A stretch of 32,000 nucleotides of DNA from Candidatus Hermodarchaeota archaeon. GTDB taxonomy: Archaea > Asgardarchaeota > Heimdallarchaeia > Hodarchaeales > Hodarchaeaceae. This document shows, piece by piece, positions 316-14,870 of the stretch. The position numbers and the translations under genes were made by a program. The notes below the pieces were generated by a model, which saw nothing but the letters and a program-made list of their open reading frames with translations, ran no database searches and was not told the DNA's origin. Location: assembly GCA_048886185.1 (NCBI GenBank), contig JBHLKY010000001.1, positions 240,001 to 272,000 on the forward strand. The letters run 5' to 3'. Each line of letters opens with the position of its first letter. Position 1 is the stretch's first letter.

Positions 316-2886
316 TTATTTATAGAAGAAATTGAAAGAAGGAAGTTTTGATACATCTGTTTCTCTTAAAGACACATTACAGACTGGACAGGTTTTTTTG
401 AATTTCACACTTTCTAGTAGATGGTGACGATGGAAAAAGCTTGAACATTGAGGACACTGAACAACTTCTTCTTCAGTTTGAAGCTCCACCACTGATGCTC
501 GACAGATAATACAGGAAAGCCTCTGGCTACAAAATCCACAATTCTTTTGCTTCTCAAGAATTGGATTACCACATTGCGGACATTGGCTTTGATAAAGGGT
601 GGTGGTTTTTTTTAGGCGACTGTATACATCTTTAAGGCCAGAAATCCAGATTTGTTGGAGTGATTTATGAGAATGGATATCAAATCGGGATGAGAATCTT
701 ATTAGGGCTTTTTCATACTCTCGATAATATTTTTCCTTTTCTGATAAATCCATGAGTTTTGAGAGATTATTCCATGAACAAAATTCCCCCAGAAGTGGTA
801 AAATAGCTCTTTGCGCATCCTCTTTTTCTTTCAATGTCTCATATAAGTTAAAGAAGTATTCTTCGGGTTTTTCAGGAGGGTGAATTTCTAAATGGTAAAC
901 TAAGGTTTTGAGGATATTCTCCTCAAGAGGCTCAATTGGCGATTCAAGAAGAATATTTTCAATTGTATGCACTGAGGTGTTTTCAAAAAGGACTGGTAAC
1001 AAAAGAGATTGACTTCGTGGTCTTTGTTTAAAAATGGAGAAAATTAACAAGTCATCATTAGCTGATTTTCCAATTAGAGAACGAAAAAAATCGTAAAGAA
1101 TTTTTTTCCCTTCAATTGAGAAATCTTGTTCTTCATAATTTGATATTAATTTTCTTAACAGAGGAAGATTCTCTTTCCCACCCTTAGTTAGTTTTTCAAG
1201 TTGGTTTATAACTATTGAATTGAATATGTGGGATTTAAGAGTAACTATAAATGGTAAAATTATATTTTCAACATCTACAAGGGATAACGATGAGAAAAAT
1301 GAATTTACAATGGGGATAAGAGAATTTAACTTTTGAGTGTCGATAATAGTAAGTGTGTTTATTGTATAATGGTTGATGATTTTATCGAGTAAAGAATTTG
1401 TAGAATTACTGAATCTTGAATCTGTGATTATTTTGGATAAACGAATTAGGACAATAATCAACAATTCATCTGGATCTAGTTTTATCAATTCTAGAACAGC
1501 TCTTTGAATCGCAGGTTCTTGAATATATGATGTTCCTTGTCCTGACAAGAGTGAGTACAGTATTTTGGGACTTGTTGTGACACATTGTGGGATAATACGT
1601 TCAAAGATAAAAGACAGATGATCCTTGGGCAATGAAGATATTACCTCTCCAATTATGGTAATACTCAAATCGAAAGCGTGAATAAGAATGGGATGAAGTT
1701 TTGAAAAGCTATTAGGAGGTAACGATTTAAATAAAAACCAAAATTGGTAGAGTTCTAAGCTAATCAGTCTATTCAGCAAAGGAATTAGATAAGCCTTATT
1801 TTTTCCTTCTTGTAAAAAATCGCTCAGTACAATATGAAGAGCATCCCTTGAACATATTATGAGTACATCCTCCCAATACTGCAATAATTCCCTCTTTAAC
1901 CGAATCATGTCTAAAAGAATCTTAAAACTAGAATGATCAATCAACATTGCGATGGATAATTGAGGAAATGAAATTCTTTTTCCTAATTTAACTATCTGAT
2001 CAAAATGTTCAGCAATATGTTGTTGTAAATATGGTTCTAGAAGTGTTTGTGTTGTTATTGTTAATTTTTTCGAGGTTAAGGCCGATTTGAAGATATCAAA
2101 GTCAGTGAAAAGAAATGCTAAACGATCTACCAAGGATTGAGTAATTATGTAATTCCCAATTTTTTGCTTTGTTCTGCTTGAAGTATCAGAAAAAATCCTG
2201 TAAATGACATCAGGAGGGAGATTAGTATTTAGTTCTATCGTTGTATTTATTATCATTTTCCAATTCTTCGTAGCAGCATCTTGGAGAAATGGTAACAGTA
2301 ATCGATGATGTGATTCAGATTTACTTTCAAGAAACGTCTTCAGAATTAAATCAACATTATTAGGAGCATAGATTTTCAGATAATGAGTTAAAACTTTTTC
2401 TCCCCATAGTACCAAAATCTTAATGAATTTTGTATTTCGCTCTGCCTTTTCTTCAGTTATTTTGTCGTATAATAATGTTCCTATACTTGAATCAAGCTGA
2501 GAAAGGATTTTTCGTATTGATTCATGGTTTAAACCAAAATCCCAATGGTTGTAAATCTGATCAAGAATTAATTCTTGTTTTTTTCGCTCTAGAGACGGAA
2601 AATAAGCAATAAATTTATTTGTGGCAATTAAATCAAAGAAAAGAGATGCTTCCTCGTTATCCAACTCCTCAAATGAAGAGAGAATAAAATAAAGACTTTC
2701 TGGGAGTGATTGTTCAAGCCCATATTTCATTTTTGTTGTGTTTTTGCCCTGTTTAAAACTTCTAAAAAAAAATTCTAACGCGTGTTGGTGGTCATCCTTA
2801 ATGAAATTCCTAATCTTCCGTTTCCATAATATTGGTACATGACTAGTCAATTTCAGATCTAATTCAGGGTTTTCTTGAAAAGACAT
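316..2886 (-). CDS. Large alpha-helical (ARM/HEAT-like solenoid) protein with C-terminal zinc ribbon and RING-like finger
   Basis: About 770 aa of Leu/Ile-rich amphipathic helices. These are followed by CPQC-x12-CGFC and CIIC-x15-CPQC-x4-HRHH-x10-CPVC. The ORF is open to 2931; the ATG at 2886 (MSFQENP) is preferred. Confidence 0.7.
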   Translation of the reverse strand: MSFQENPELDLKLTSHVPILWKRKIRNFIKDDHQHALEFFFRSFKQGKNTTKMKYGLEQSLPESLYFILSSFEELDNEEASLFFDLIATNKFIAYFPSLERKKQELILDQIYNHWDFGLNHESIRKILSQLDSSIGTLLYDKITEEKAERNTKFIKILVLWGEKVLTHYLKIYAPNNVDLILKTFLESKSESHHRLLLPFLQDAATKNWKMIINTTIELNTNLPPDVIYRIFSDTSSRTKQKIGNYIITQSLVDRLAFLFTDFDIFKSALTSKKLTITTQTLLEPYLQQHIAEHFDQIVKLGKRISFPQLSIAMLIDHSSFKILLDMIRLKRELLQYWEDVLIICSRDALHIVLSDFLQEGKNKAYLIPLLNRLISLELYQFWFLFKSLPPNSFSKLHPILIHAFDLSITIIGEVISSLPKDHLSFIFERIIPQCVTTSPKILYSLLSGQGTSYIQEPAIQRAVLELIKLDPDELLIIVLIRLSKIITDSRFSNSTNSLLDKIINHYTINTLTIIDTQKLNSLIPIVNSFFSSLSLVDVENIILPFIVTLKSHIFNSIVINQLEKLTKGGKENLPLLRKLISNYEEQDFSIEGKKILYDFFRSLIGKSANDDLLIFSIFKQRPRSQSLLLPVLFENTSVHTIENILLESPIEPLEENILKTLVYHLEIHPPEKPEEYFFNLYETLKEKEDAQRAILPLLGEFCSWNNLSKLMDLSEKEKYYREYEKALIRFSSRFDIHSHKSLQQIWISGLKDVYSRLKKTTTLYQSQCPQCGNPILEKQKNCGFCSQRLSCIICRASVVELQTEEEVVQCPQCSSFFHRHHLLESVKFKKTCPVCNVSLRETDVSKLPSFNFFYK

Positions 2887-2999: not shown

Positions 3000-4226
3000 T
3001 TAATTTTCAGTAGAATATACTTCTTTTCCATTTATAAAAACTCTTTCCACCTTACTGTAGAACTCAAAGGGGTGATCTGACCATATCACTATATCAGCAT
3101 CTTTCCCTTTATCTAAAGAACCAACGCGGTCATAGATTCCCAATATTTCTGCTGGGTTTTTAGTTACACATTGTAAAGCTTCTTCTCGTGACAAACCTTC
3201 CTTTATTGCATACATCGGTAACAGCTGGAAGAAGTTCATTGGAGTAAGCGAATCTGTTTGCAAAGCAACTTTAACTCCTGCTTTAACCATGCTTACTACA
3301 GTCTTAAATGATCGCTGTCGCGTTTCTGGTTTAGTTATCCACATGATTGTTGGTCCTAAAACAGCAGGTACTCCTTTTGTTGCGATATAATCTGCAATTT
3401 TCTCCCCTTCTGTACAATGGATAAGAACTAGGCGGATATCAAATTCCTCTGCTATCCTGATAATTGTGGCAATATCATCAGCCCTATGAGCATGAGCGTG
3501 GAGAGGGATCTCTTTTTTAATCACCTTAATTATTATTTCCATGCCCAAATCATGCTTCGGCGGAATTGGAGGCGCTTTTCCAAGTTTTTCAGCTATTTCT
3601 AATCGTTTTCTATAAGTTTCCCATTCATTGATATAATTTTTAGCCTCATTGAAGGTTTTTCTTAATAATCCTGCAATACCCATCCTTGTTTGGGGCATTC
3701 TTTTGTGTTCCTGTCCATGCATCCTCTTTGGATTCTCTCCTAACGCAATTTTTAATCCTGACGGAGCAAGTAGAATCATTTCATCAACAATAGTTTTTCC
3801 CGAGGGTTTCACGATAAAAGCTTGACCAGAAATGACATTTCCTGAACCAGGGCCTGTATTAATACAAGTAACTCCTCCCCTCCACACTTCCTTCAATGAT
3901 GCGTCATCAGGATTAAAAGAATCAAGGCCTCTAAGGTGAGGAGTTATAGGATCAGTCATTTCATTACCATCCATTCCTGCCCATCCTATACCACCTTCAA
4001 ATAGGCCTTGGTGGCTATGTGCATCAATGAACCCTGGTATGACATATTTGTTTGTAGCATTAATTACCTCTGTGCCTTCTGGGATGGTTAAGTCTGGGCC
4101 TATTGTGTGGATTCTCTCCTCATCAAACAGAATACTCCCATTTTCTATTAGTCCTTGATTAGGACAGAGAATTGTAGCATTAACTATAGCTTTCATCATC
4201 AGATCTCCATCAAATATCGTTGCCAT
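3000..4226 (-). CDS. Metal-dependent amidohydrolase (imidazolonepropionase-like)
   Basis: Motifs VIPGFIDAHSH (HxH), HAHRADD, HCTEG, QTDS, NPAEILG..DRVGSL..GKDAD. Confidence 0.92.
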   Translation of the reverse strand: MATIFDGDLMMKAIVNATILCPNQGLIENGSILFDEERIHTIGPDLTIPEGTEVINATNKYVIPGFIDAHSHQGLFEGGIGWAGMDGNEMTDPITPHLRGLDSFNPDDASLKEVWRGGVTCINTGPGSGNVISGQAFIVKPSGKTIVDEMILLAPSGLKIALGENPKRMHGQEHKRMPQTRMGIAGLLRKTFNEAKNYINEWETYRKRLEIAEKLGKAPPIPPKHDLGMEIIIKVIKKEIPLHAHAHRADDIATIIRIAEEFDIRLVLIHCTEGEKIADYIATKGVPAVLGPTIMWITKPETRQRSFKTVVSMVKAGVKVALQTDSLTPMNFFQLLPMYAIKEGLSREEALQCVTKNPAEILGIYDRVGSLDKGKDADIVIWSDHPFEFYSKVERVFINGKEVYSTEN

Positions 4227-4323: not shown

Positions 4324-6105
4324 TTACGTTCGTTTCTCTACAATTGCTTGAAACTCTTTTAATAGCTTCTGAAGATAATCGAAACCTGCTTGCCAAAATT
4401 CAGGTTGGGTTAGATCCAGTCCAACAGAGGCAGCCAAATCCACAGGGAATTGTGATCCACCTGCTTCAAGGATTCGCTTGTATTTTGGGATAAATGATTT
4501 CCCTTCTTCAAGGTATTTTTGATAGAGACCTAGGACAAAAAGTGCTCCAAAAGAGTACGCATAACAGTAAAAGATTCTTGGGTCTAGAAAATGTGGTATA
4601 GTTGCCCAATTCCAACTCTGTTCATGAAGGAAATCGACTGAATCACCATAGGCGTCTTTTACGTGGCTATCCCAGATATCAGACATTTGTTTGGCCGATA
4701 AATTCTCTTTAGCTCCTTTTTCATGGCATTCTTTTTCCCAGAACACATACATGGTTTGACGAGAGATCGTAACAATAGCATCCTCTATCTGGTTAGCAAG
4801 GAGTTTCAGTTTTGCCTCCTCATCAGTTAATGTATTTAACATCTTATCAATTAGTATTTGCTCTCCAAAACCCGAAGCAGTCTCAGCAGCTACCAAGGGG
4901 GGATAATAGTTGAAAAGAGTTTGATTTCGTCCACTGAAAAGATCGTGTAAACCATGTCCCATTTCATGAGCAAGAGTTCTAGCCCCATCAGGTGTACCAT
5001 CATAAGACATATGGATTAAAGGATCTATTCCAGGTGCGATACTTAAACACAATGCGCCAAATCGTTTGGTTTTCCTAACTTCTGAGTCTATGAGATTGCG
5101 ATCAAAGAATCCTTTTGCCATTTCACCAATCTCTGGATCAAATTCGGAATATGCATCAAGTACCATTTGTTTAGTCTCCTCCCAGGTGTATTTGATTACT
5201 TTACCCAGGGGAGCATAAAGATCAGATCCTTTAATTCTATCACCTTGCCCCATCAGCTTAGCTTTCGACTTATAATATTCCTGTACAAGAGAATAATTCT
5301 TTTTAATGATTTCCATCATAGTTTGTACAATTTTCTCGTCTGTTTGATTCCTAAGATGTGCTGGAGTCATTATTGTGGGATATTTACGAAGATCAACATC
5401 TATTCCATGATTTTTCCAAATATTATTGAAACAATGACTTATTGCAATGGATTCGTTTGCATATTTTTGATAATAAGCTCTGAAAACTTTTTCGCGTGTT
5501 TCAGGATTGGGATCACGAAATAAAGGGTAGATTTCTCCTGGAGACATTTTCTTCAATTCTCCTTCGATCTCCACTTCGAATTCGAAAGCCGCGGTGAATT
5601 CTTGGAAGAATTTAAACCAGGCGTCCCGACCCACTAGCGATTTCTGTAGAAGAACCTGTTCAACTGGTTCGGAGAGTAGATAAGGCTTGTTCAGTCGTTT
5701 AACCACGATGTAATGGTGGTAATTAGCCAAAATCGGATCAGAGAGATATTTCTTGACATTCTCTTCAGATAATTCGTTCAATTCTAAGGTAATCCAAAGC
5801 AATTTGTTTGTAATATCTACAGAATGGTGTTCCATTTTTGCATAAAGCGCTTTATGATCTTCATTAGTAGTTTCCTGATAGAAAAGTAGAGCTCCATATC
5901 CTTCTGGCTTTGAGATCAAGGTTTGAGCTTTTTCGGTTTGTTGAAAAAGTTCAAGTAATTCCTTAGCAGATAATTCACCACTTTTTACTTTTCCTCGAAA
6001 TTTCTGCAATTCATCAGCGATTTTGTGAGCCTTATTTACATGTTCATTGATATTTGGATCATTATAACTTTTAAACAGAAAAGAAAGGTCCCAATTGCTA
6101 GTCAT
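4324..6105 (-). CDS. pepF: M3 family oligoendopeptidase F
   Basis: N-terminal WDLS, TLAHEMGHGLH (HExxH), AETAS, W..IPHF, FYCYAYSFG, Y..IL.AGGS. The ORF is open to 6132; the ATG at 6105 has GGAG upstream. Confidence 0.92.
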   Translation of the reverse strand: MTSNWDLSFLFKSYNDPNINEHVNKAHKIADELQKFRGKVKSGELSAKELLELFQQTEKAQTLISKPEGYGALLFYQETTNEDHKALYAKMEHHSVDITNKLLWITLELNELSEENVKKYLSDPILANYHHYIVVKRLNKPYLLSEPVEQVLLQKSLVGRDAWFKFFQEFTAAFEFEVEIEGELKKMSPGEIYPLFRDPNPETREKVFRAYYQKYANESIAISHCFNNIWKNHGIDVDLRKYPTIMTPAHLRNQTDEKIVQTMMEIIKKNYSLVQEYYKSKAKLMGQGDRIKGSDLYAPLGKVIKYTWEETKQMVLDAYSEFDPEIGEMAKGFFDRNLIDSEVRKTKRFGALCLSIAPGIDPLIHMSYDGTPDGARTLAHEMGHGLHDLFSGRNQTLFNYYPPLVAAETASGFGEQILIDKMLNTLTDEEAKLKLLANQIEDAIVTISRQTMYVFWEKECHEKGAKENLSAKQMSDIWDSHVKDAYGDSVDFLHEQSWNWATIPHFLDPRIFYCYAYSFGALFVLGLYQKYLEEGKSFIPKYKRILEAGGSQFPVDLAASVGLDLTQPEFWQAGFDYLQKLLKEFQAIVEKRT

Positions 6106-6613
6106 TAAATAACAACTCCATTTTTCAGACATAATTTACTATTAGCTTGTAACAACTAACCAATTGGTTGAAATATCTAAGATTTATTATTCTGGCATTT
6201 AGTAATCAATTCGAATGAGAAGGGAACTAATTAAATAAGAATCTGTAGTTAATTGCTGTCATATTAGTAATTGTCATTCTTTTTCCCCTATGCAATATTC
6301 CTTAAGAAAAATCCCTTTATGAAACAGAAATAGCTACCTGTCCACTAAGATTTGTATAATAATAATTGGTACTTGTACTTAGTATTAATTGTAGTTGTAC
6401 TTAAAATATCGGACTTTATGTTTTTAAAGTAAAATATATTGGAAGGGATTAATATTATCAAATTGTGAAAATCTCTGAAGTAAGGAAAGAAATGTGAAGA
6501 ATCTATTTGAAAAGCGGAGGAAATTTGAAAATAATTAATAAAACGAAAGGAAAGCTGGATATAAGGATTTTAATAGAGATAAATTGAAAATAAACTATAG
6601 AAAGGGAACAAAT

Positions 6614-9539: not shown

Positions 9540-10439
9540 ATGCCTCTTCTCTCAGTTAAAGTTTTTAATGGAAATAACATTGAATTGAATTCGACTGTGT
9601 CCATTTCAAGAGATCATCGAATTTATGAATTAATTCCACTTATTGGAAGATTAGCACGAGAAGCGATTCAAAAAGAACAGACTCATGGATTAATTATTAA
9701 TGATCAATTGATTGTTTTTTGTACCATTAATGATTTGATGCTGGTCTCAATTGCTACTCGCAATACTTCTTTTCAAAGAGTTGAATCATTTTTAAAGCTC
9801 CTTAGAGAATATCTAAGTAATCATCTTCAATCTTCCCAAGCCCTTGTATCCTCAAAAGATTTTCAAGATTTATGTAATTCAATAGTAAAAACTATTGATG
9901 ACTCAACTAAAGAAATAAAAATCTCTCTTCTCGGATTGGATCGTTCAGGAAAAACTACTTTTCTTAATTTCCTAAGGGAAGAACAACCTCTAACTGGGTT
10001 CGAATCTTATAAGCCAACACAACTCCTTGATATAATTAGAATCGATTCCATAAGTAATCTACCCCAAATCCAGTTTATTGATCTTGGGTATGCTTTTCGA
10101 CAGCATTGGTGGAGATTTAGTAATGAATCTGATGCATATATTTTTTTTGTAGATAGCTCCGATTCAAATCGAATAAAGAAGTCTCAGGAGTTATTCAAGG
10201 AAATTCGTAACTTCTGGGATCGTCCTTTTGTAATTGCAGCTAATATGCGTGATGTAAGCAAAATTGTTAACATTAGGAAATATCTTGCCCGTAAGTTTAG
10301 TATTTCAAGCAAGAAAATCTATGAAACGAACACTTGGACTGGGGATGGCATTTTTCCTCTTCTTGAAGGATTAATTACAGAAGAGATGCGAAAAATTCAA
10401 ATTGCACCTATAATCCATTCAAATAAACGTGAGACATAG
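9540..10439 (+). CDS. N-terminal longin-like domain fused to an Arf-like small GTPase with degenerate G3/G4 motifs
   Basis: GLDRSGKTT (G1), KPT (G2), FIDLGYAFRQHW (G3 region), YIFFVDSSDSNRI, AANMRD (G4), TGDGI. The ~120-aa N-terminus has a beta-beta-alpha-beta-beta-beta-alpha-alpha-like pattern; the longin assignment is inferred. Confidence 0.75.
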   Translation: MPLLSVKVFNGNNIELNSTVSISRDHRIYELIPLIGRLAREAIQKEQTHGLIINDQLIVFCTINDLMLVSIATRNTSFQRVESFLKLLREYLSNHLQSSQALVSSKDFQDLCNSIVKTIDDSTKEIKISLLGLDRSGKTTFLNFLREEQPLTGFESYKPTQLLDIIRIDSISNLPQIQFIDLGYAFRQHWWRFSNESDAYIFFVDSSDSNRIKKSQELFKEIRNFWDRPFVIAANMRDVSKIVNIRKYLARKFSISSKKIYETNTWTGDGIFPLLEGLITEEMRKIQIAPIIHSNKRET

Positions 10440-10486: not shown

Positions 10487-11383
10487 CTAAAATCCTAAGA
10501 AAGGAGATAGAAGAATCCCTAATAAGACCATAATATAAATCGAAATTAGACTAACAATTCCGGCACGTTCCATACGGGCAAAGAATTGAACTGATATTGC
10601 GCGAGTAGATAATAGAATGACCCATAGTTGCAAAATAATGGCTAGTGCTAATGGAAGGAAAGATTGAGATAAATCGAAGACATCAATTACTACTAAAAGA
10701 GGAAAGAGTCCTAAAGGTAATATTGATACGCCTAAAAAGACAGCCATTGTCATAACATCTTCTAGGGATAAGTACTTTTTCCGTAAGAGATACTTAGAAA
10801 GAACTAATACTAAGAATGTGAAAACAAACCAAGATAGCAATATACTTCCCAAGCTTATCAAAATATTCTTGTTCGGATTTACATCAGAATAAAACACAAA
10901 AACTAGTACTAAATCGGCTTGAGCGGTGAAAAAGGCAAATAATAAAAAAAAGAGTATTTGCCAGCCAATGAACAACACAATGGATTTCTTTACGAAGAAG
11001 AAAAATCTGGGAGGGGCTAAAATTTTCCAGATTAACGAAAAAGGATATTTCTGGATAAAATCACTTTGTGTAATGAACTGGTTTCGATCTTGACTTGATG
11101 TTAATAAATTATGAGCAAACCATCCCCGTTCAGAAAGCATCCATGATTTGGATCCCTCATCTTGAGTAATTAAATCTCCTAAAAGGTTAATGTGGTGATA
11201 GATCGTCCCAACTTGAACAGGTTTATTACGGGTTTTACTCTTATTTAACTCATTCTGAAGACTAGTAAATCCTATATCTTCAAATTCTTGGTGTTCTGCA
11301 AGAATGATAATTATATCTTGTCTTAGCGGATGAGAAAGTGCCTTGAAAATTTCGGTAAGGTTCTCATCTGCCTGTTTCGACAT
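10487..11383 (-). CDS. Winged helix-turn-helix (ArsR-like) protein fused to a 5-6 TM membrane domain
   Basis: ALSHPLRQDII...GFTSLQNEL...GTIYHHINLLGDLI...WMLSERG is a wHTH signature. The C-terminal ~160 aa are hydrophobic helices. Confidence 0.75.
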   Translation of the reverse strand: MSKQADENLTEIFKALSHPLRQDIIIILAEHQEFEDIGFTSLQNELNKSKTRNKPVQVGTIYHHINLLGDLITQDEGSKSWMLSERGWFAHNLLTSSQDRNQFITQSDFIQKYPFSLIWKILAPPRFFFFVKKSIVLFIGWQILFFLLFAFFTAQADLVLVFVFYSDVNPNKNILISLGSILLSWFVFTFLVLVLSKYLLRKKYLSLEDVMTMAVFLGVSILPLGLFPLLVVIDVFDLSQSFLPLALAIILQLWVILLSTRAISVQFFARMERAGIVSLISIYIMVLLGILLSPFLGF

Positions 11384-11510: not shown

Positions 11511-14500
11511 CTATTTTCTACTCCTTCGAAATTCCCGAACAGTCAACACGAGAATCGGAATGGCTAACACGACAATCATGAGCCTCATATTCTCATGTAT
11601 GAAGCTTGTCAGGGTTGTGAAGCCATTCACACCACTTGGTTCTCCTGATGTTGGAGGTCCAGATGTGCTGGAAGGTACGGTTGTTGATGGTTCTATTGGT
11701 ACGATCGCTGCATAAGCGGAGAGGAGAGAAGAGTCGCTGTACGATGTCCAACTAGAAGCACTGGAAGTAGTACTCTGTATTCTAAATCTCGTAACAAAAG
11801 AATCTATGTGCATTCTGGTGTTGAATGCCATAGCAACTGCTAAAGGACTGCCTTCTCCGCTTTCTTCACTAGCTCCTTCCATACCTGATGCACCAGCCAT
11901 CGGATAGCGGCTACTATATTCTACAGAGACGGGTGGTACTATTAAGGAGTCTGCATCTGTTACTGTAAGTTTGTAATAGAATATAATAGTAGCTCCAGGA
12001 GCAAGGTGCAATCCTTCAATAGCTGCGATAGTAATAGGCCAATCTGGGTGATCTAAAGCAAAACCTTTGTCATAGGTTTCTGGATCTATTGTATTACCTG
12101 AAATATCCGTGACTTTGTAATTGTAACCATTATAATAATCAGCGTATGGATCAATACTAGCCATCCTCGTAGGGAAATAGCTATATAGTTTGATGGTTGT
12201 AGCCTCGTCTCCAAGGTTTTTTACTTCAGTTCTAATTTCGATGAGATCCCCATTCTCGATGTAATCCCCATTTTCATCAGTCCAAGAAACTGATACATTA
12301 ACAATAGGTGTTGGATAGCTTGGTTCGTCTTCTCCAGCTTTATCGTCCTTTGGTAAAACAACACCTAGTATGAGGTTAGAAACAAGTCCTGTAATTTCTG
12401 TTCGATTGAAGACACCTCCATAACCTTCATCTTCTTCAGTTGTATATACAAGGCCTACTGTGACTGGATGAATGCCAAGGAATGTAGATACATTCCGAAT
12501 GAAGGTGTGAGTTTCTATACCTCCAGCATCGATATTATTTATGGGGATAACTTCAGAAAAGTTATATACATCTCTCAGTTGCCAATCGGGGCCTAGTTGA
12601 GCATGGTACCCCTGAATGAAGATGTTTGTGGCATTTGCATCACCTATGTTTTTAATTGTAACATCGATCTGAGCAACATCATCAATTTTATAGATTGACG
12701 AGTTTAATGATACTGTTGCTTTTAATATCGCCTCTAAATCATAAAGTTGGACAACAAGGCCATTTGACCAACCAAAATACTCACGCTCAGCACTGTCAGA
12801 ATATCGAAACATTACTCCTGGTAGGAATTCGGGATTTCCTATCAAAGATGGGTGGCGTAAATCTTCTCCTTTTGAGAGGGCTTCTTGAACAACATAATCT
12901 ACTAGATTATTTCCAACACCATATGCACTAGTGTTATCAAAAAAAGTCACATTAAACTCATATGGAGTTGATGTCATATCCACCTGTGCATCCCATCCGA
13001 GAACGAGGAATGTATCATCTATTCCAGGAAGTTCACCAATTGACCACCAAAAAGTCTCAGCTGAACCATTTACTAGTTCCGGAATCGTTCCATTCAAGGC
13101 GAAATTTCCATTCTGTAAAGTTGTCTCTTGTAGATTGCTAGAATAATTGAACTCAAAGAAAGATTTATTGATATAAACAACCTTCATTGATTCCTCAAGA
13201 TCAACATCGAACACTTGGTTTGTTTCATTCCAATATGTAACTGGCTGAACGACAGTACCATTCTTATAAGTAAACCACCCCTCGATAAGGAGGTTAACTG
13301 GCCAAGTAGCATTCCAAGAAGGAAGATCTTCCAAAGTTCCAGTGAAATAATTGTAATATTTTTGAATGGTAGCGTTGAATTCGTATAAATCTGAATTAAA
13401 GATTGAAATGTTTATTGATTCGGGTTTTCCTTGAAGATCCCAAGCAAAGGATACATCATACGCGTTTTCATTTCCAGTATTATTCAGTTCTATTGTATAA
13501 TTCAACATTGGATCTGTAAGTGAGTGTAATGCCTGAACATCTACTGACACATCTCCAGCAATCTGAGGAAAGGTCGTTAGTTCTTCAACATTCATATCAT
13601 AGGTCACATAAATGTCTTCATAAGGTCCATTGACCCAAGGGCCAAATTTCAATGTCCATTCAAACTGACCTGTAAGTTCTGGATACAGATTGTTCGTATC
13701 AGGGTATAAATCATAGACATTTGCTATATATGGAAGTTTAAAATTAATGTGACTGATAGAACTATTTTCTGCAGGTGTAATATCGCCCGTGAGTCCAAAT
13801 GCTGATTCAATAGACATATTGTGAACCCCATTCTCATCGATATCTATTCCGTTTTCTAAAATGAAAGCTGTGACAGCTAGAGGAATAAAATTACCAAGTT
13901 CATTTTTGATCAGGCCAGTTCCAACCACTGATACTGGAGCTGATGAAAGTACGTCCCTTGTTATAAAACTAGTAAAACCTTCTTGACTTAAGACATCGTA
14001 GAACTGGGTAGTGATAAAATCAGAGTGGTTCTGAGCTGACATATAACCCCAGTAGAAAAGGGTAGTTACACCTCCAATTTCAACACCATAAAGTATATCT
14101 AGTGTTGTACCCATCCACGTATTCAAAGCTGGAATAATTTCTGATGCATCATCAAGAGCAGCTTGCATTCCTTGTGAGAATTGAAATAGTATGGTTGCAC
14201 CATCACGAAATTCCCAGATTGATCTAGGCCAATAGTCACGCCAGTTTGCTTGATTGGAGCTAATGATGTAAATGAGATCAAGTTCATCAAAAGAGCTATC
14301 AGAGGGATTTAATGGGAAATTTTTCTTACCACTTAATTGATAGTATTGAGCGATAAGAGCATTATCTTCAGCAGCGATTAGTTCAAGTGCTTCAATGAAT
14401 GGATCCTCACCTACAACGGTGTCTGTCAGGATCTTTTTGGGTACAGGCGGAGTCGCTACAGTGATACCTGATTGACTCATCAGTATGAGAGTAATAAGCA

Positions 14501-14540
14501 TCACATTAACAGCTAAAAGCTGAATTCTTTTTTGATTCAT
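11511..14540 (-). CDS. Secreted, C-terminally anchored surface (S-layer-like) glycoprotein with three CARDB/DUF11-like Ig domains
   Basis: Signal peptide MNQKRIQLLAVNVMLITLILMSQS (ATG 14540; ORF open to 14618). Ig signatures are YTIELNNTGNENAYDV, DVTIKNIGDANATNI and RTEVKNLGDEATTI. Many N-x-S/T sequons, a Ser/Thr/Pro linker, a TM helix and a basic RRSRK tail. Confidence 0.8.
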   Translation of the reverse strand: MNQKRIQLLAVNVMLITLILMSQSGITVATPPVPKKILTDTVVGEDPFIEALELIAAEDNALIAQYYQLSGKKNFPLNPSDSSFDELDLIYIISSNQANWRDYWPRSIWEFRDGATILFQFSQGMQAALDDASEIIPALNTWMGTTLDILYGVEIGGVTTLFYWGYMSAQNHSDFITTQFYDVLSQEGFTSFITRDVLSSAPVSVVGTGLIKNELGNFIPLAVTAFILENGIDIDENGVHNMSIESAFGLTGDITPAENSSISHINFKLPYIANVYDLYPDTNNLYPELTGQFEWTLKFGPWVNGPYEDIYVTYDMNVEELTTFPQIAGDVSVDVQALHSLTDPMLNYTIELNNTGNENAYDVSFAWDLQGKPESINISIFNSDLYEFNATIQKYYNYFTGTLEDLPSWNATWPVNLLIEGWFTYKNGTVVQPVTYWNETNQVFDVDLEESMKVVYINKSFFEFNYSSNLQETTLQNGNFALNGTIPELVNGSAETFWWSIGELPGIDDTFLVLGWDAQVDMTSTPYEFNVTFFDNTSAYGVGNNLVDYVVQEALSKGEDLRHPSLIGNPEFLPGVMFRYSDSAEREYFGWSNGLVVQLYDLEAILKATVSLNSSIYKIDDVAQIDVTIKNIGDANATNIFIQGYHAQLGPDWQLRDVYNFSEVIPINNIDAGGIETHTFIRNVSTFLGIHPVTVGLVYTTEEDEGYGGVFNRTEITGLVSNLILGVVLPKDDKAGEDEPSYPTPIVNVSVSWTDENGDYIENGDLIEIRTEVKNLGDEATTIKLYSYFPTRMASIDPYADYYNGYNYKVTDISGNTIDPETYDKGFALDHPDWPITIAAIEGLHLAPGATIIFYYKLTVTDADSLIVPPVSVEYSSRYPMAGASGMEGASEESGEGSPLAVAMAFNTRMHIDSFVTRFRIQSTTSSASSWTSYSDSSLLSAYAAIVPIEPSTTVPSSTSGPPTSGEPSGVNGFTTLTSFIHENMRLMIVVLAIPILVLTVREFRRSRK

Positions 14541-14870
14541 GTTTAATCTCCTATTAAACTCTAATTTTTTAGTTTTGATAAAATAAAAGAAGCAACTTGC
14601 TTTTAAGTTGTAATTCATATTGATTATCCCTCTCTTTTAAGGGCTCTTTTATAGAATTATAGAAAAGACTTATTCTAGTTCTCTTGAATAATCTTCGTGA
14701 GTTCTTAGTTTTCAAGAAAATCTTATATGATAATTGATTTGTATTGTTTATATTTCAAAATGATAAATTTCAACATCATCTCCCGATATTATTATCAATG
14801 AATAAATATCTGGAAGTAGAATACTATATTGTTTTGAATGATTAACTCAACTTATTGTGTGGTAGATATC

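Follow-up and report, generated by a model that had tools for sequence, protein, structure and literature searches.

Introduction

It is an open question which components of the machineries for ubiquitin and membrane trafficking predate eukaryotes, and it is raised in concrete form by a single gene of the Hodarchaeales. The gene lies at one end of a stretch of 32,000 nucleotides from Candidatus Hermodarchaeota archaeon (assembly GCA_048886185.1, contig JBHLKY010000001.1, positions 240,001 to 272,000; this whole stretch is called the window below) and encodes a protein with a eukaryote-style layout, in which a long helical solenoid ends in a zinc finger and a RING finger, present in Hodarchaeales as a conserved single-copy gene. 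Does such a protein act with ubiquitin, does it serve as a structural scaffold, or is it a relative of the vesicle-tethering complexes? The reading that best accommodates the data is that of a lineage-specific adaptor, similar to RING-type ubiquitin ligases (E3s), of the Hodarchaeales ubiquitin system, to which we assign a probability of about one half. Should the similarity of its tail to eukaryotic tails be due to descent, one hallmark of protocoatomer-type proteins would have a starting point in prokaryotes; otherwise the protein would be a lineage-specific E3-like adaptor with an unusual surface towards the ubiquitin-conjugating enzyme (E2).

Gene and domain layout

The genome carrying the window measures 4.84 Mb and is 96% complete. 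The gene is a single open reading frame (ORF) of 856 codons on the minus strand, running from an ATG at 2886 to a TAA stop at 318-316. An in-frame TTG is present at 2931, 15 codons upstream of the ATG, and the start was placed at 2886 because all orthologues begin at a Met aligned with that position; the limits 316-2886 given in a preliminary description, made from the sequence alone, are therefore correct. The features of the gene on which the argument depends are the following.

316..2886, minus strand: whole coding sequence, 856 aa (ORF list and translation; start by orthologue alignment, stop read directly)
613..2886, minus strand: predicted all-helical HEAT/ARM-like alpha-solenoid, residues 1-758 (AF2, Foldseek, VIA-align)
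529..582, minus strand: C4 zinc ribbon, residues 769-786, CPQC-x10-CGFC (invariant Cys; model strands E766-768 and E775-777)
379..513, minus strand: predicted C4H2C2 cross-brace RING finger, residues 792-836 (zf-RING_2 alignment, domain model, VIA-align, RNF24 and RNF4 alignments)

A word-index search gave 20 homologues, which together with the query form a family of 21 members, and an AlphaFold2 (AF2) model was built on their alignment (mean predicted local distance difference test score, pLDDT, 85.2; predicted template-modelling score, pTM, 0.56). It places 47 helices in residues 7-758, and the first strand does not occur before residue 766. Hence the architecture first proposed for the protein, a solenoid followed by a zinc ribbon (769-786) and an atypical RING (792-836), is recovered in the model, and so is the accompanying claim that a beta-propeller is missing: none is seen in the AF2 model, which is helical from residue 7, the extra residues of the orthologues are internal rather than N-terminal, and there is no room for an N-terminal propeller because the next gene begins 113 bp upstream.

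The C-terminal ribbon and RING finger

The ligands of the RING part can be read directly as C792-x2-C795-x15-C811-x2-C814-x4-H819-x2-H822-x10-C833-x2-C836, that is, in the order C4-H-H-C2 (CIIC, CPQC, HxxH, CPVC) already stated in the preliminary description, and this spacing satisfies the RING consensus C-x2-C-x(9-39)-C-x(1-3)-[CH]-x(2-4)-[CH]-x2-[CH]-x(4-48)-C-x2-C. All 12 ligands of ribbon and RING are invariant in 10 full-length orthologues and in an alignment of 99 ribbon-plus-RING modules, which combines the tails of 13 family members with those of 86 other proteins. Because hidden Markov model (HMM) alignments to RNF24 and RNF4 set H819 and H822 as ligands 5 and 6, and the C-P-x-C knuckle as ligands 3 and 4, zinc site 1 would be formed by C792, C795, H819 and H822, and site 2 by C811, C814, C833 and C836.

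Folded alone on the 99-module alignment, the tail is modelled with a pLDDT of 91.9 and a pTM of 0.80 and shows the beta-hairpin, helix and knuckle of a beta-beta-alpha RING. A comparison of the tail with 48,161 representative chains by VIA-align, which is independent of Foldseek, returned RING or U-box domains for all of the best 50 matches, including the Prp19 U-box (Z 6.9, root-mean-square deviation 1.9 A over 56 aa) and RNF4 (Z 6.8, 2.0 A over 60 aa, 27% identity). At the sequence level, zf-RING_2 is matched at E<=1e-3 by 86 of the 99 modules, with a best E of 7.3e-9, and the module profile, searched against the PDB sequences, retrieves RNF4 (2.8e-10) and RNF24 and Arkadia (both 1.7e-7) by a match limited to its RING part. 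The two fingers could conversely be taken as a string of independent zinc ribbons, for nucleic-acid binding or as a fold staple, with no RING at all, as the many sub-threshold Pfam matches to DZR, Zn_ribbon_9, Zn_ribbon_15 and further Zn_ribbon families found for the ribbon might suggest. The confident beta-beta-alpha model, the uniformly RING or U-box matches and the alignment of zf-RING_2 from end to end (positions 2-44 of 44) make this extremely improbable, and the models support a true cross-brace RING fold for residues 792-836. Of the two outcomes that the preliminary description had named as refuting it, an N-terminal region that is no solenoid and two independent ribbons encoded at 379-582, neither is seen in the models.

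A cassette shared among Asgard proteins

The tail is not confined to the solenoid family. When 1.84 billion representatives were searched exhaustively by phmmer with the single sequence, no more than 19 matches fell below 1e-30; all of them belong to this same family, and no distant relatives of the solenoid came to light beyond it. About 190 further matches cover only residues ~760-845 and always fall near the C-terminus, in proteins of 60 to 1,700 aa; the full 12-ligand pattern is present in 86 of the 128 matches examined. Pfam labels the cassette as DZR plus zf-RING_2 or Prok-RING_1. The N-termini joined to it comprise HEAT, TPR, LRR, PCI and beta-helix domains. Among 400 Asgard genomes, 122 contain the cassette at E<=1e-18, and a single genome may have as many as 13 copies. 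Almost all genomes of the class to which the window belongs have it, and several large families are without it. The extra matches of a final word-index search with the module profile were again all Asgard proteins. In the window's own genome, the solenoid gene is the sole bearer of the full tandem, and in six other proteins only the RING part is present. Judged from these sequences, the ribbon-plus-RING tail is a mobile cassette attached to unrelated N-terminal domains. Because it sits behind N-termini of repeat or adaptor type, its layout is that of a recognition domain followed by a RING, as is usual for E3s.

One bearer of the same tail is a conserved protein of ~690 aa (genome G011 and many other genomes of one Asgard family) with PCI and winged-helix-like matches in its N-terminal part, a pairing of PCI and RING that recalls proteasome-lid and COP9-type scaffolds.

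Ubiquitin system and predicted E2 contact

The genome encodes a ubiquitin-activating enzyme (E1), a JAB protein, four UQ_con E2 proteins and two ubiquitin matches above the Pfam cut-off. An operon of E1, E2 and JAB/MPN genes with a further RING gene lies ~50 kb from the solenoid gene on the same contig, and a second neighbourhood is found on another contig, C14.

Contig positions 293137-298030, ~21-26 kb past the window end: ubiquitin cluster with a RING protein (390-aa frame), JAB/MPN (306 aa), E2 (175 aa), ThiF-type E1 (414 aa) and ubiquitin-like ORFs
Contig C14, positions 34641-45573: second ubiquitin neighbourhood with two UQ_con proteins, the best ubiquitin match (84-aa frame) and a small RING ORF

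The match to the small RING ORF on C14, read in six frames, includes one TAG. Asgard cascades of E1, E2 and RING proteins have been described as functional in vitro (bioRxiv 10.1101/2023.07.25.550441).

A complex between the tail (on the 99-module alignment) and the most canonical of the genome's E2s was then predicted along with three controls. The model scores 0.62, with 0.00 for the best control; 58 of 80 solved complexes and 2 of 110 mismatched pairs attain that mark. The runs share at least 96% of their contacts and the pLDDT of the partner is at least 91. The modelled interface is canonical, setting RING residues 793-797, 816, 822, 825-826, 829-830 and 834-835 against helix 1 and loops 61-63 and 93-95 of the E2. 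As RING-E2 complexes have already been solved, this pass may reflect likeness to known RING-E2 structures rather than binding.

Two positions of the modelled RING surface depart from what is usual.

409..411, minus strand: Ser826, at the E2-contacting Trp position of RING-H2 fingers (module alignment)
376..378, minus strand: Asn837, at the 'linchpin' position directly behind the last Cys (module alignment)

In RING biochemistry, this Trp is the aromatic residue that contacts the E2, and the residue after the last Cys is the 'linchpin' that primes the ubiquitin-charged E2 (E2~Ub). The replacement of the Trp, pointed out at the outset from the string HLLESV, extends through the family, where the position is Ser in 12 of 13 members; outside the family, the 86 modules have Trp in 60 cases and Tyr in 11. 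Likewise, the residue after the last Cys is Asn in 11 and His in 2 of the 13 family members, and Lys (38) or Arg (21) in many of the 86 others. The cassette consensus behind the two His ligands reads L-L-E-W-(I/V)-K, and the E2-facing Ile794 and Pro834 are retained in the protein. The combined change of Trp to Ser and of Lys/Arg to Asn suggests a weakened or specialised engagement of E2~Ub.

On this basis, a mechanism can be outlined. The solenoid of ~750 residues, HEAT/ARM-like, would form the platform that binds a substrate or partner, and the C-terminal cassette, in which the ribbon is packed beside the binuclear C4H2C2 RING, would recruit the ubiquitin-charged E2. According to the model, the contact would run through the usual RING surface, made of the CxIC and CP knuckles and of the helix that follows the His pair, with an E2~Ub engagement that the two replacements could weaken or specialise. 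We infer E2 binding, which the complex model suggests, together with ligase activity and a role of the solenoid in substrate binding.

Several observations weigh against an E3-like adaptor. The Trp and the linchpin Lys/Arg, both of them characteristic of the contact with E2 and E2~Ub, are replaced throughout the family. The zf-RING_2 score is 25.9 bits when the tail is taken by itself and 21.2 bits for the whole protein, below the cut-off of 27.3. The gene stands outside the ubiquitin operons, and the genes conserved next to it encode a peptidase and an amidohydrolase. Finally, where the tail has full-length counterparts in eukaryotes, in the intraflagellar transport complex A (IFT-A) and in GATOR2, it serves mainly for contacts between proteins (Hesketh et al. 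preprint).

The helical N-terminal region

With respect to the solenoid, Foldseek against the PDB returned HEAT/ARM solenoids (SF3B1, CAND1, importins and UTP20-type proteins) with a probability of 1.00 and E-values from ~4e-6 to 8e-5, and human IFT144 (8bbg_A) at rank 2. When the whole model was compared by VIA-align, in a second look and in an independent wide search, the matches included API5, TOG domains, B56, She4/UNC-45 and exportins, with a highest Z of 10.1; the wide search also contained a generic HEAT-type match to the beta/delta-COPI adaptin core (5mu7_A, Z 6.9). On helical repeats, a Z of ~13 is needed in VIA-align and lower values denote a common arrangement only, so that the solenoid is not attributable to a particular family. 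In both shape searches of the ESM Atlas, WDR19 clusters came first at TM-scores of 0.23-0.38; an ESM Atlas feature search gave no usable match, and an NCBIfam search of the protein nothing useful. In its model, the N-terminal region thus looks like a generic HEAT/ARM-like solenoid and not like a coat protein.

This bears on the likeness to HOPS/CORVET subunits from which the preliminary description had started. A true homologue of the class C subunits (Vps11/18/41/8/39), acting as a membrane tether, would fit the order of solenoid and RING, the homologs of Vps11, Vps16, Vps18 and Vps39 in Asgard archaea, mentioned by Eme et al. 2023 as 'a few homologs' without detail, and the presence of an Arf-family GTPase gene 6.6 kb away. 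One match to a Clathrin/VPS repeat (PF00637) at residues 175-274 would also count in its favour. It reaches 17.2-19.3 bits (E 0.0044 at 17.2 bits) against a cut-off of 29.6 bits, occurs in 1 of 21 family members and is the only such match of the genome, and it was put down to chance. The propeller is absent, the best matches of the solenoid are HEAT/ARM proteins and the solenoid is limited to one genus. Moreover, Sec1/Vps33 (PF00995), Vps16_C (PF04840) and zf-Vps39_C (PF10367) were not found in this 96%-complete genome, the control genomes being empty for two of these families as well, and no chain of HOPS/CORVET, alpha/beta'-COP or clathrin is among the fold or sequence matches listed. Homology to HOPS/CORVET is accordingly very improbable. 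What survives of the earlier comparison is the layout, which recalls subunits of protocoatomer type through the tails of IFT-A and GATOR2, and the echo of Vps proteins in particular does not; of the two roles that had been considered, an archaeal E3-like protein is better supported than a tethering scaffold.

Likeness to IFT-A and GATOR2

Among the eukaryotic matches listed, the tail as a whole resembles most closely the tails of IFT-A and GATOR2 subunits, and not those of HOPS/CORVET. With an alignment that covers both fingers, the module profile matches residues 1246-1327 of human WDR19/IFT144 at 3.7e-8 (profile positions 8-90 of 91), Leishmania IFT144 at 1.9e-7, MIOS at 4.1e-6, IFT122B at 4.4e-6, WDR24 at 3.5e-5 and WDR59 at 4.2e-5, and it also finds the Tetrahymena and Chlamydomonas IFT144 proteins. 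The alignment with WDR19 is colinear, with a single gap of one residue; WDR19 retains the ribbon and RING site 2 and has lost site 1 except for its first Cys, the same pattern of site decay that has been described for alpha-COP by Kaur and Subramanian (PMC4678705). By Foldseek, IFT-A chains take ranks 1, 2, 3 and 5 for the tail and GATOR2 chains ranks 7 and 9 (TMq 0.36-0.48 over 81-97 columns).

These matches raise the possibility of a structural scaffold with a non-catalytic RING, whose tail would be a junction for assembly, either between solenoid subunits or to a partner, as in IFT-A and GATOR2, where IFT-A RINGs mediate contacts with subunits and adaptors (Hesketh et al. preprint). Such a protein would assemble or order a larger complex instead of passing on ubiquitin. 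Such a role would also be in keeping with the leading place of IFT-A for the tail, with the rank of IFT144 and the WDR19 clusters in the whole-model searches, and with the loss of the Trp and the linchpin residue in the family. Yet the TM-scores to IFT-A and GATOR2 all stay below 0.5, a profile built from the family only yields marginal RING matches in the PDB (RNF4, 0.0096) and leaves IFT144 non-significant (E 0.33), and the Cys-rich module profile also matches an unrelated designed C2H2 protein at 1.2e-6. In addition, the archaeal protein keeps both zinc sites, of which WDR19 has lost the first, as well as the E2-facing Ile and Pro, and the E2 docks canonically in the complex model. The structural role is less likely than the E3-like adaptor, of which it is the main rival.

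A further proposal goes beyond this likeness. The Asgard ribbon-plus-RING cassette could be the prokaryotic source of the zinc-finger-plus-RING tails of IFT-A, GATOR2/SEA and perhaps COPI and HOPS/CORVET, and the solenoid protein would then be a propeller-less, pre-protocoatomer-like scaffold with both zinc sites and an E2-competent face. At present this descent has to be called unlikely. No paper linking Asgard proteins to the tails of IFT-A or GATOR2 was found among the 15 best-ranked of 321 papers.

Family, distribution and an internal deletion

The E3-like adaptor, as the favoured reading has it, would be restricted to one lineage. The 20 homologues from the word-index search are 34-60% identical to the query, and the complete ones measure ~1025-1050 aa; their NCBI names are hypothetical protein, 'RING finger protein' or 'E3 ubiquitin protein ligase', and the named ones all come from Hodarchaeales or from Asgard metagenome-assembled genomes of Heimdallarchaeota type. 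When the 400 Asgard genomes were searched with residues 1-750, and then with a solenoid-only profile of 15 sequences, the solenoid was present in 20 of 21 further genomes that GTDB assigns to the genus of the window and in none of the 379 Asgard genomes outside it, even at E<=1e-3. The gene is found in a single copy per genome and evolves fast, with ~31% identity where the neighbouring M3 peptidase keeps 67-69%.

A sister-family protein of ~1,015-1,022 aa (genome G086 and about ten genomes of one sister genus) ends in the same ribbon-plus-RING cassette. No likeness of its N-terminal part to the solenoid family was detectable by hhalign (probability 0.1); the protein could be an analogous scaffold, or else an orthologue that has diverged too far to be recognised.

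The window copy differs from the full-length orthologues in that ~170 residues present in every one of them (profile positions 176-344) are missing. The alignment has a gap at columns ~190-371, and the profile match is limited to positions 1-175 and 345-938.

2362..2394, minus strand: junction of the in-frame internal deletion of ~170 aa, at about residues 165-175 (orthologue alignment, profile search, drop of model pLDDT)

At this junction the pLDDT of the model falls to 57-79. Six contigs are recorded with the identical 856-aa protein, which rules out a single faulty assembly as the cause of the deletion. Other members are also altered: in the 695-aa orthologue frame of genome G064 the profile match begins only at position 346, and in genome G065 the N-terminal 124 residues are encoded ~1 Mb from the remainder. 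Because of these losses and splits, the solenoid segment ~176-345 looks dispensable or prone to rearrangement.

Gene neighbourhood

Two genes upstream of the solenoid gene are co-directional with it.

3000..4226, minus strand: amidohydrolase (Pfam Amidohydro_1 and Amidohydro_3; same position in three orthologous loci)
4324..6132, minus strand: M3 oligoendopeptidase F-like peptidase (Pfam Peptidase_M3 and M3_N)

In five loci (G058, G063, G074, G067 and CP070665.1) the M3 peptidase adjoins the orthologue on its upstream side and in the same orientation, in some of them with only ~31% identity of the solenoid protein, and in the window the amidohydrolase stands between the two genes. Since all the compared genomes belong to one genus, this conserved peptidase neighbourhood may have been kept by common inheritance and need not mark a functional link; a tie to the turnover of peptides downstream of ubiquitin-dependent degradation would be speculation.

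Among the other genes of the window are the following.

9540-10439, plus strand: 299-aa protein with an Arf-family GTPase domain (residues 114-276) behind an N-terminal extension of 113 residues
22794-32000, plus strand: giant ORF of more than 3,069 aa, running past the window end

The Arf-family protein has an orthologue with the same neighbourhood in CP070665.1. Within the giant ORF, the G+C content climbs from ~0.36 to 0.47-0.49 from 27 kb on. No Pfam family was found at E<=1e-5 for the 1,035-aa protein at 11511-14618 (minus strand) or the 298-aa protein at 10487-11383 (minus strand).

Comparison with known systems

The protein can be set beside different known systems, to each of which it is partly alike. 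With the HOPS/CORVET subunits Vps11, Vps18, Vps41, Vps8 and Vps39 it shares a long helical region followed by a C-terminal finger of RING type, and it differs from them by the absence of a propeller and of a supported CHCR repeat. The likeness to subunits of IFT-A (IFT144/WDR19, IFT122, IFT121) and of GATOR2 (MIOS, WDR24, WDR59) is closer, consisting of a zinc ribbon and then a RING at the C-terminal end of an alpha-solenoid; these proteins provide the best fold matches of the archaeal tail and the best neighbours in shape of the whole protein. Unlike them, the archaeal protein is devoid of N-terminal beta-propellers and has a solenoid of HEAT/ARM-like rather than TPR or coat type, and both zinc sites are kept in its RING, whereas site 1 is lost in WDR19. 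The link in sequence is significant only with the broad profile of 99 modules.

Small archaeal RING E3s of ubiquitin operons were reportedly described by Hennell James in 2017. These short, operon-encoded E3s of Asgard archaea and Caldiarchaeum are likewise archaeal RINGs found alongside eukaryote-like E1, E2 and ubiquitin, and the six RING-only proteins of the window's own genome, which are of such a small type, match the same profile. In contrast, the solenoid protein is large, stands outside the ubiquitin operons, has an extra ribbon and has lost the Trp.

Lastly, the RING-H2 E3s (RNF4, RNF24, Arkadia/RNF165; Pfam zf-RING_2 and Prok-RING_1) have the same cross-brace spacing and the motif H-x2-(H/C)-L-x-E-x-(I/V)...C-P-x-C; their fold superposes at ~2 A on that modelled for the archaeal tail, whose predicted E2 interface is canonical. 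The archaeal ligand set is nevertheless C4H2C2, with a Cys of the C-P-x-C knuckle as ligand 4 and His as ligands 5 and 6, and the finger differs further from the RING-H2 type by a C4 ribbon fused directly ahead of it, by Ser in place of the Trp and Asn in place of the linchpin Lys/Arg, and by its position on a genus-specific solenoid of ~750 aa in this protein and ~930 aa in its orthologues.

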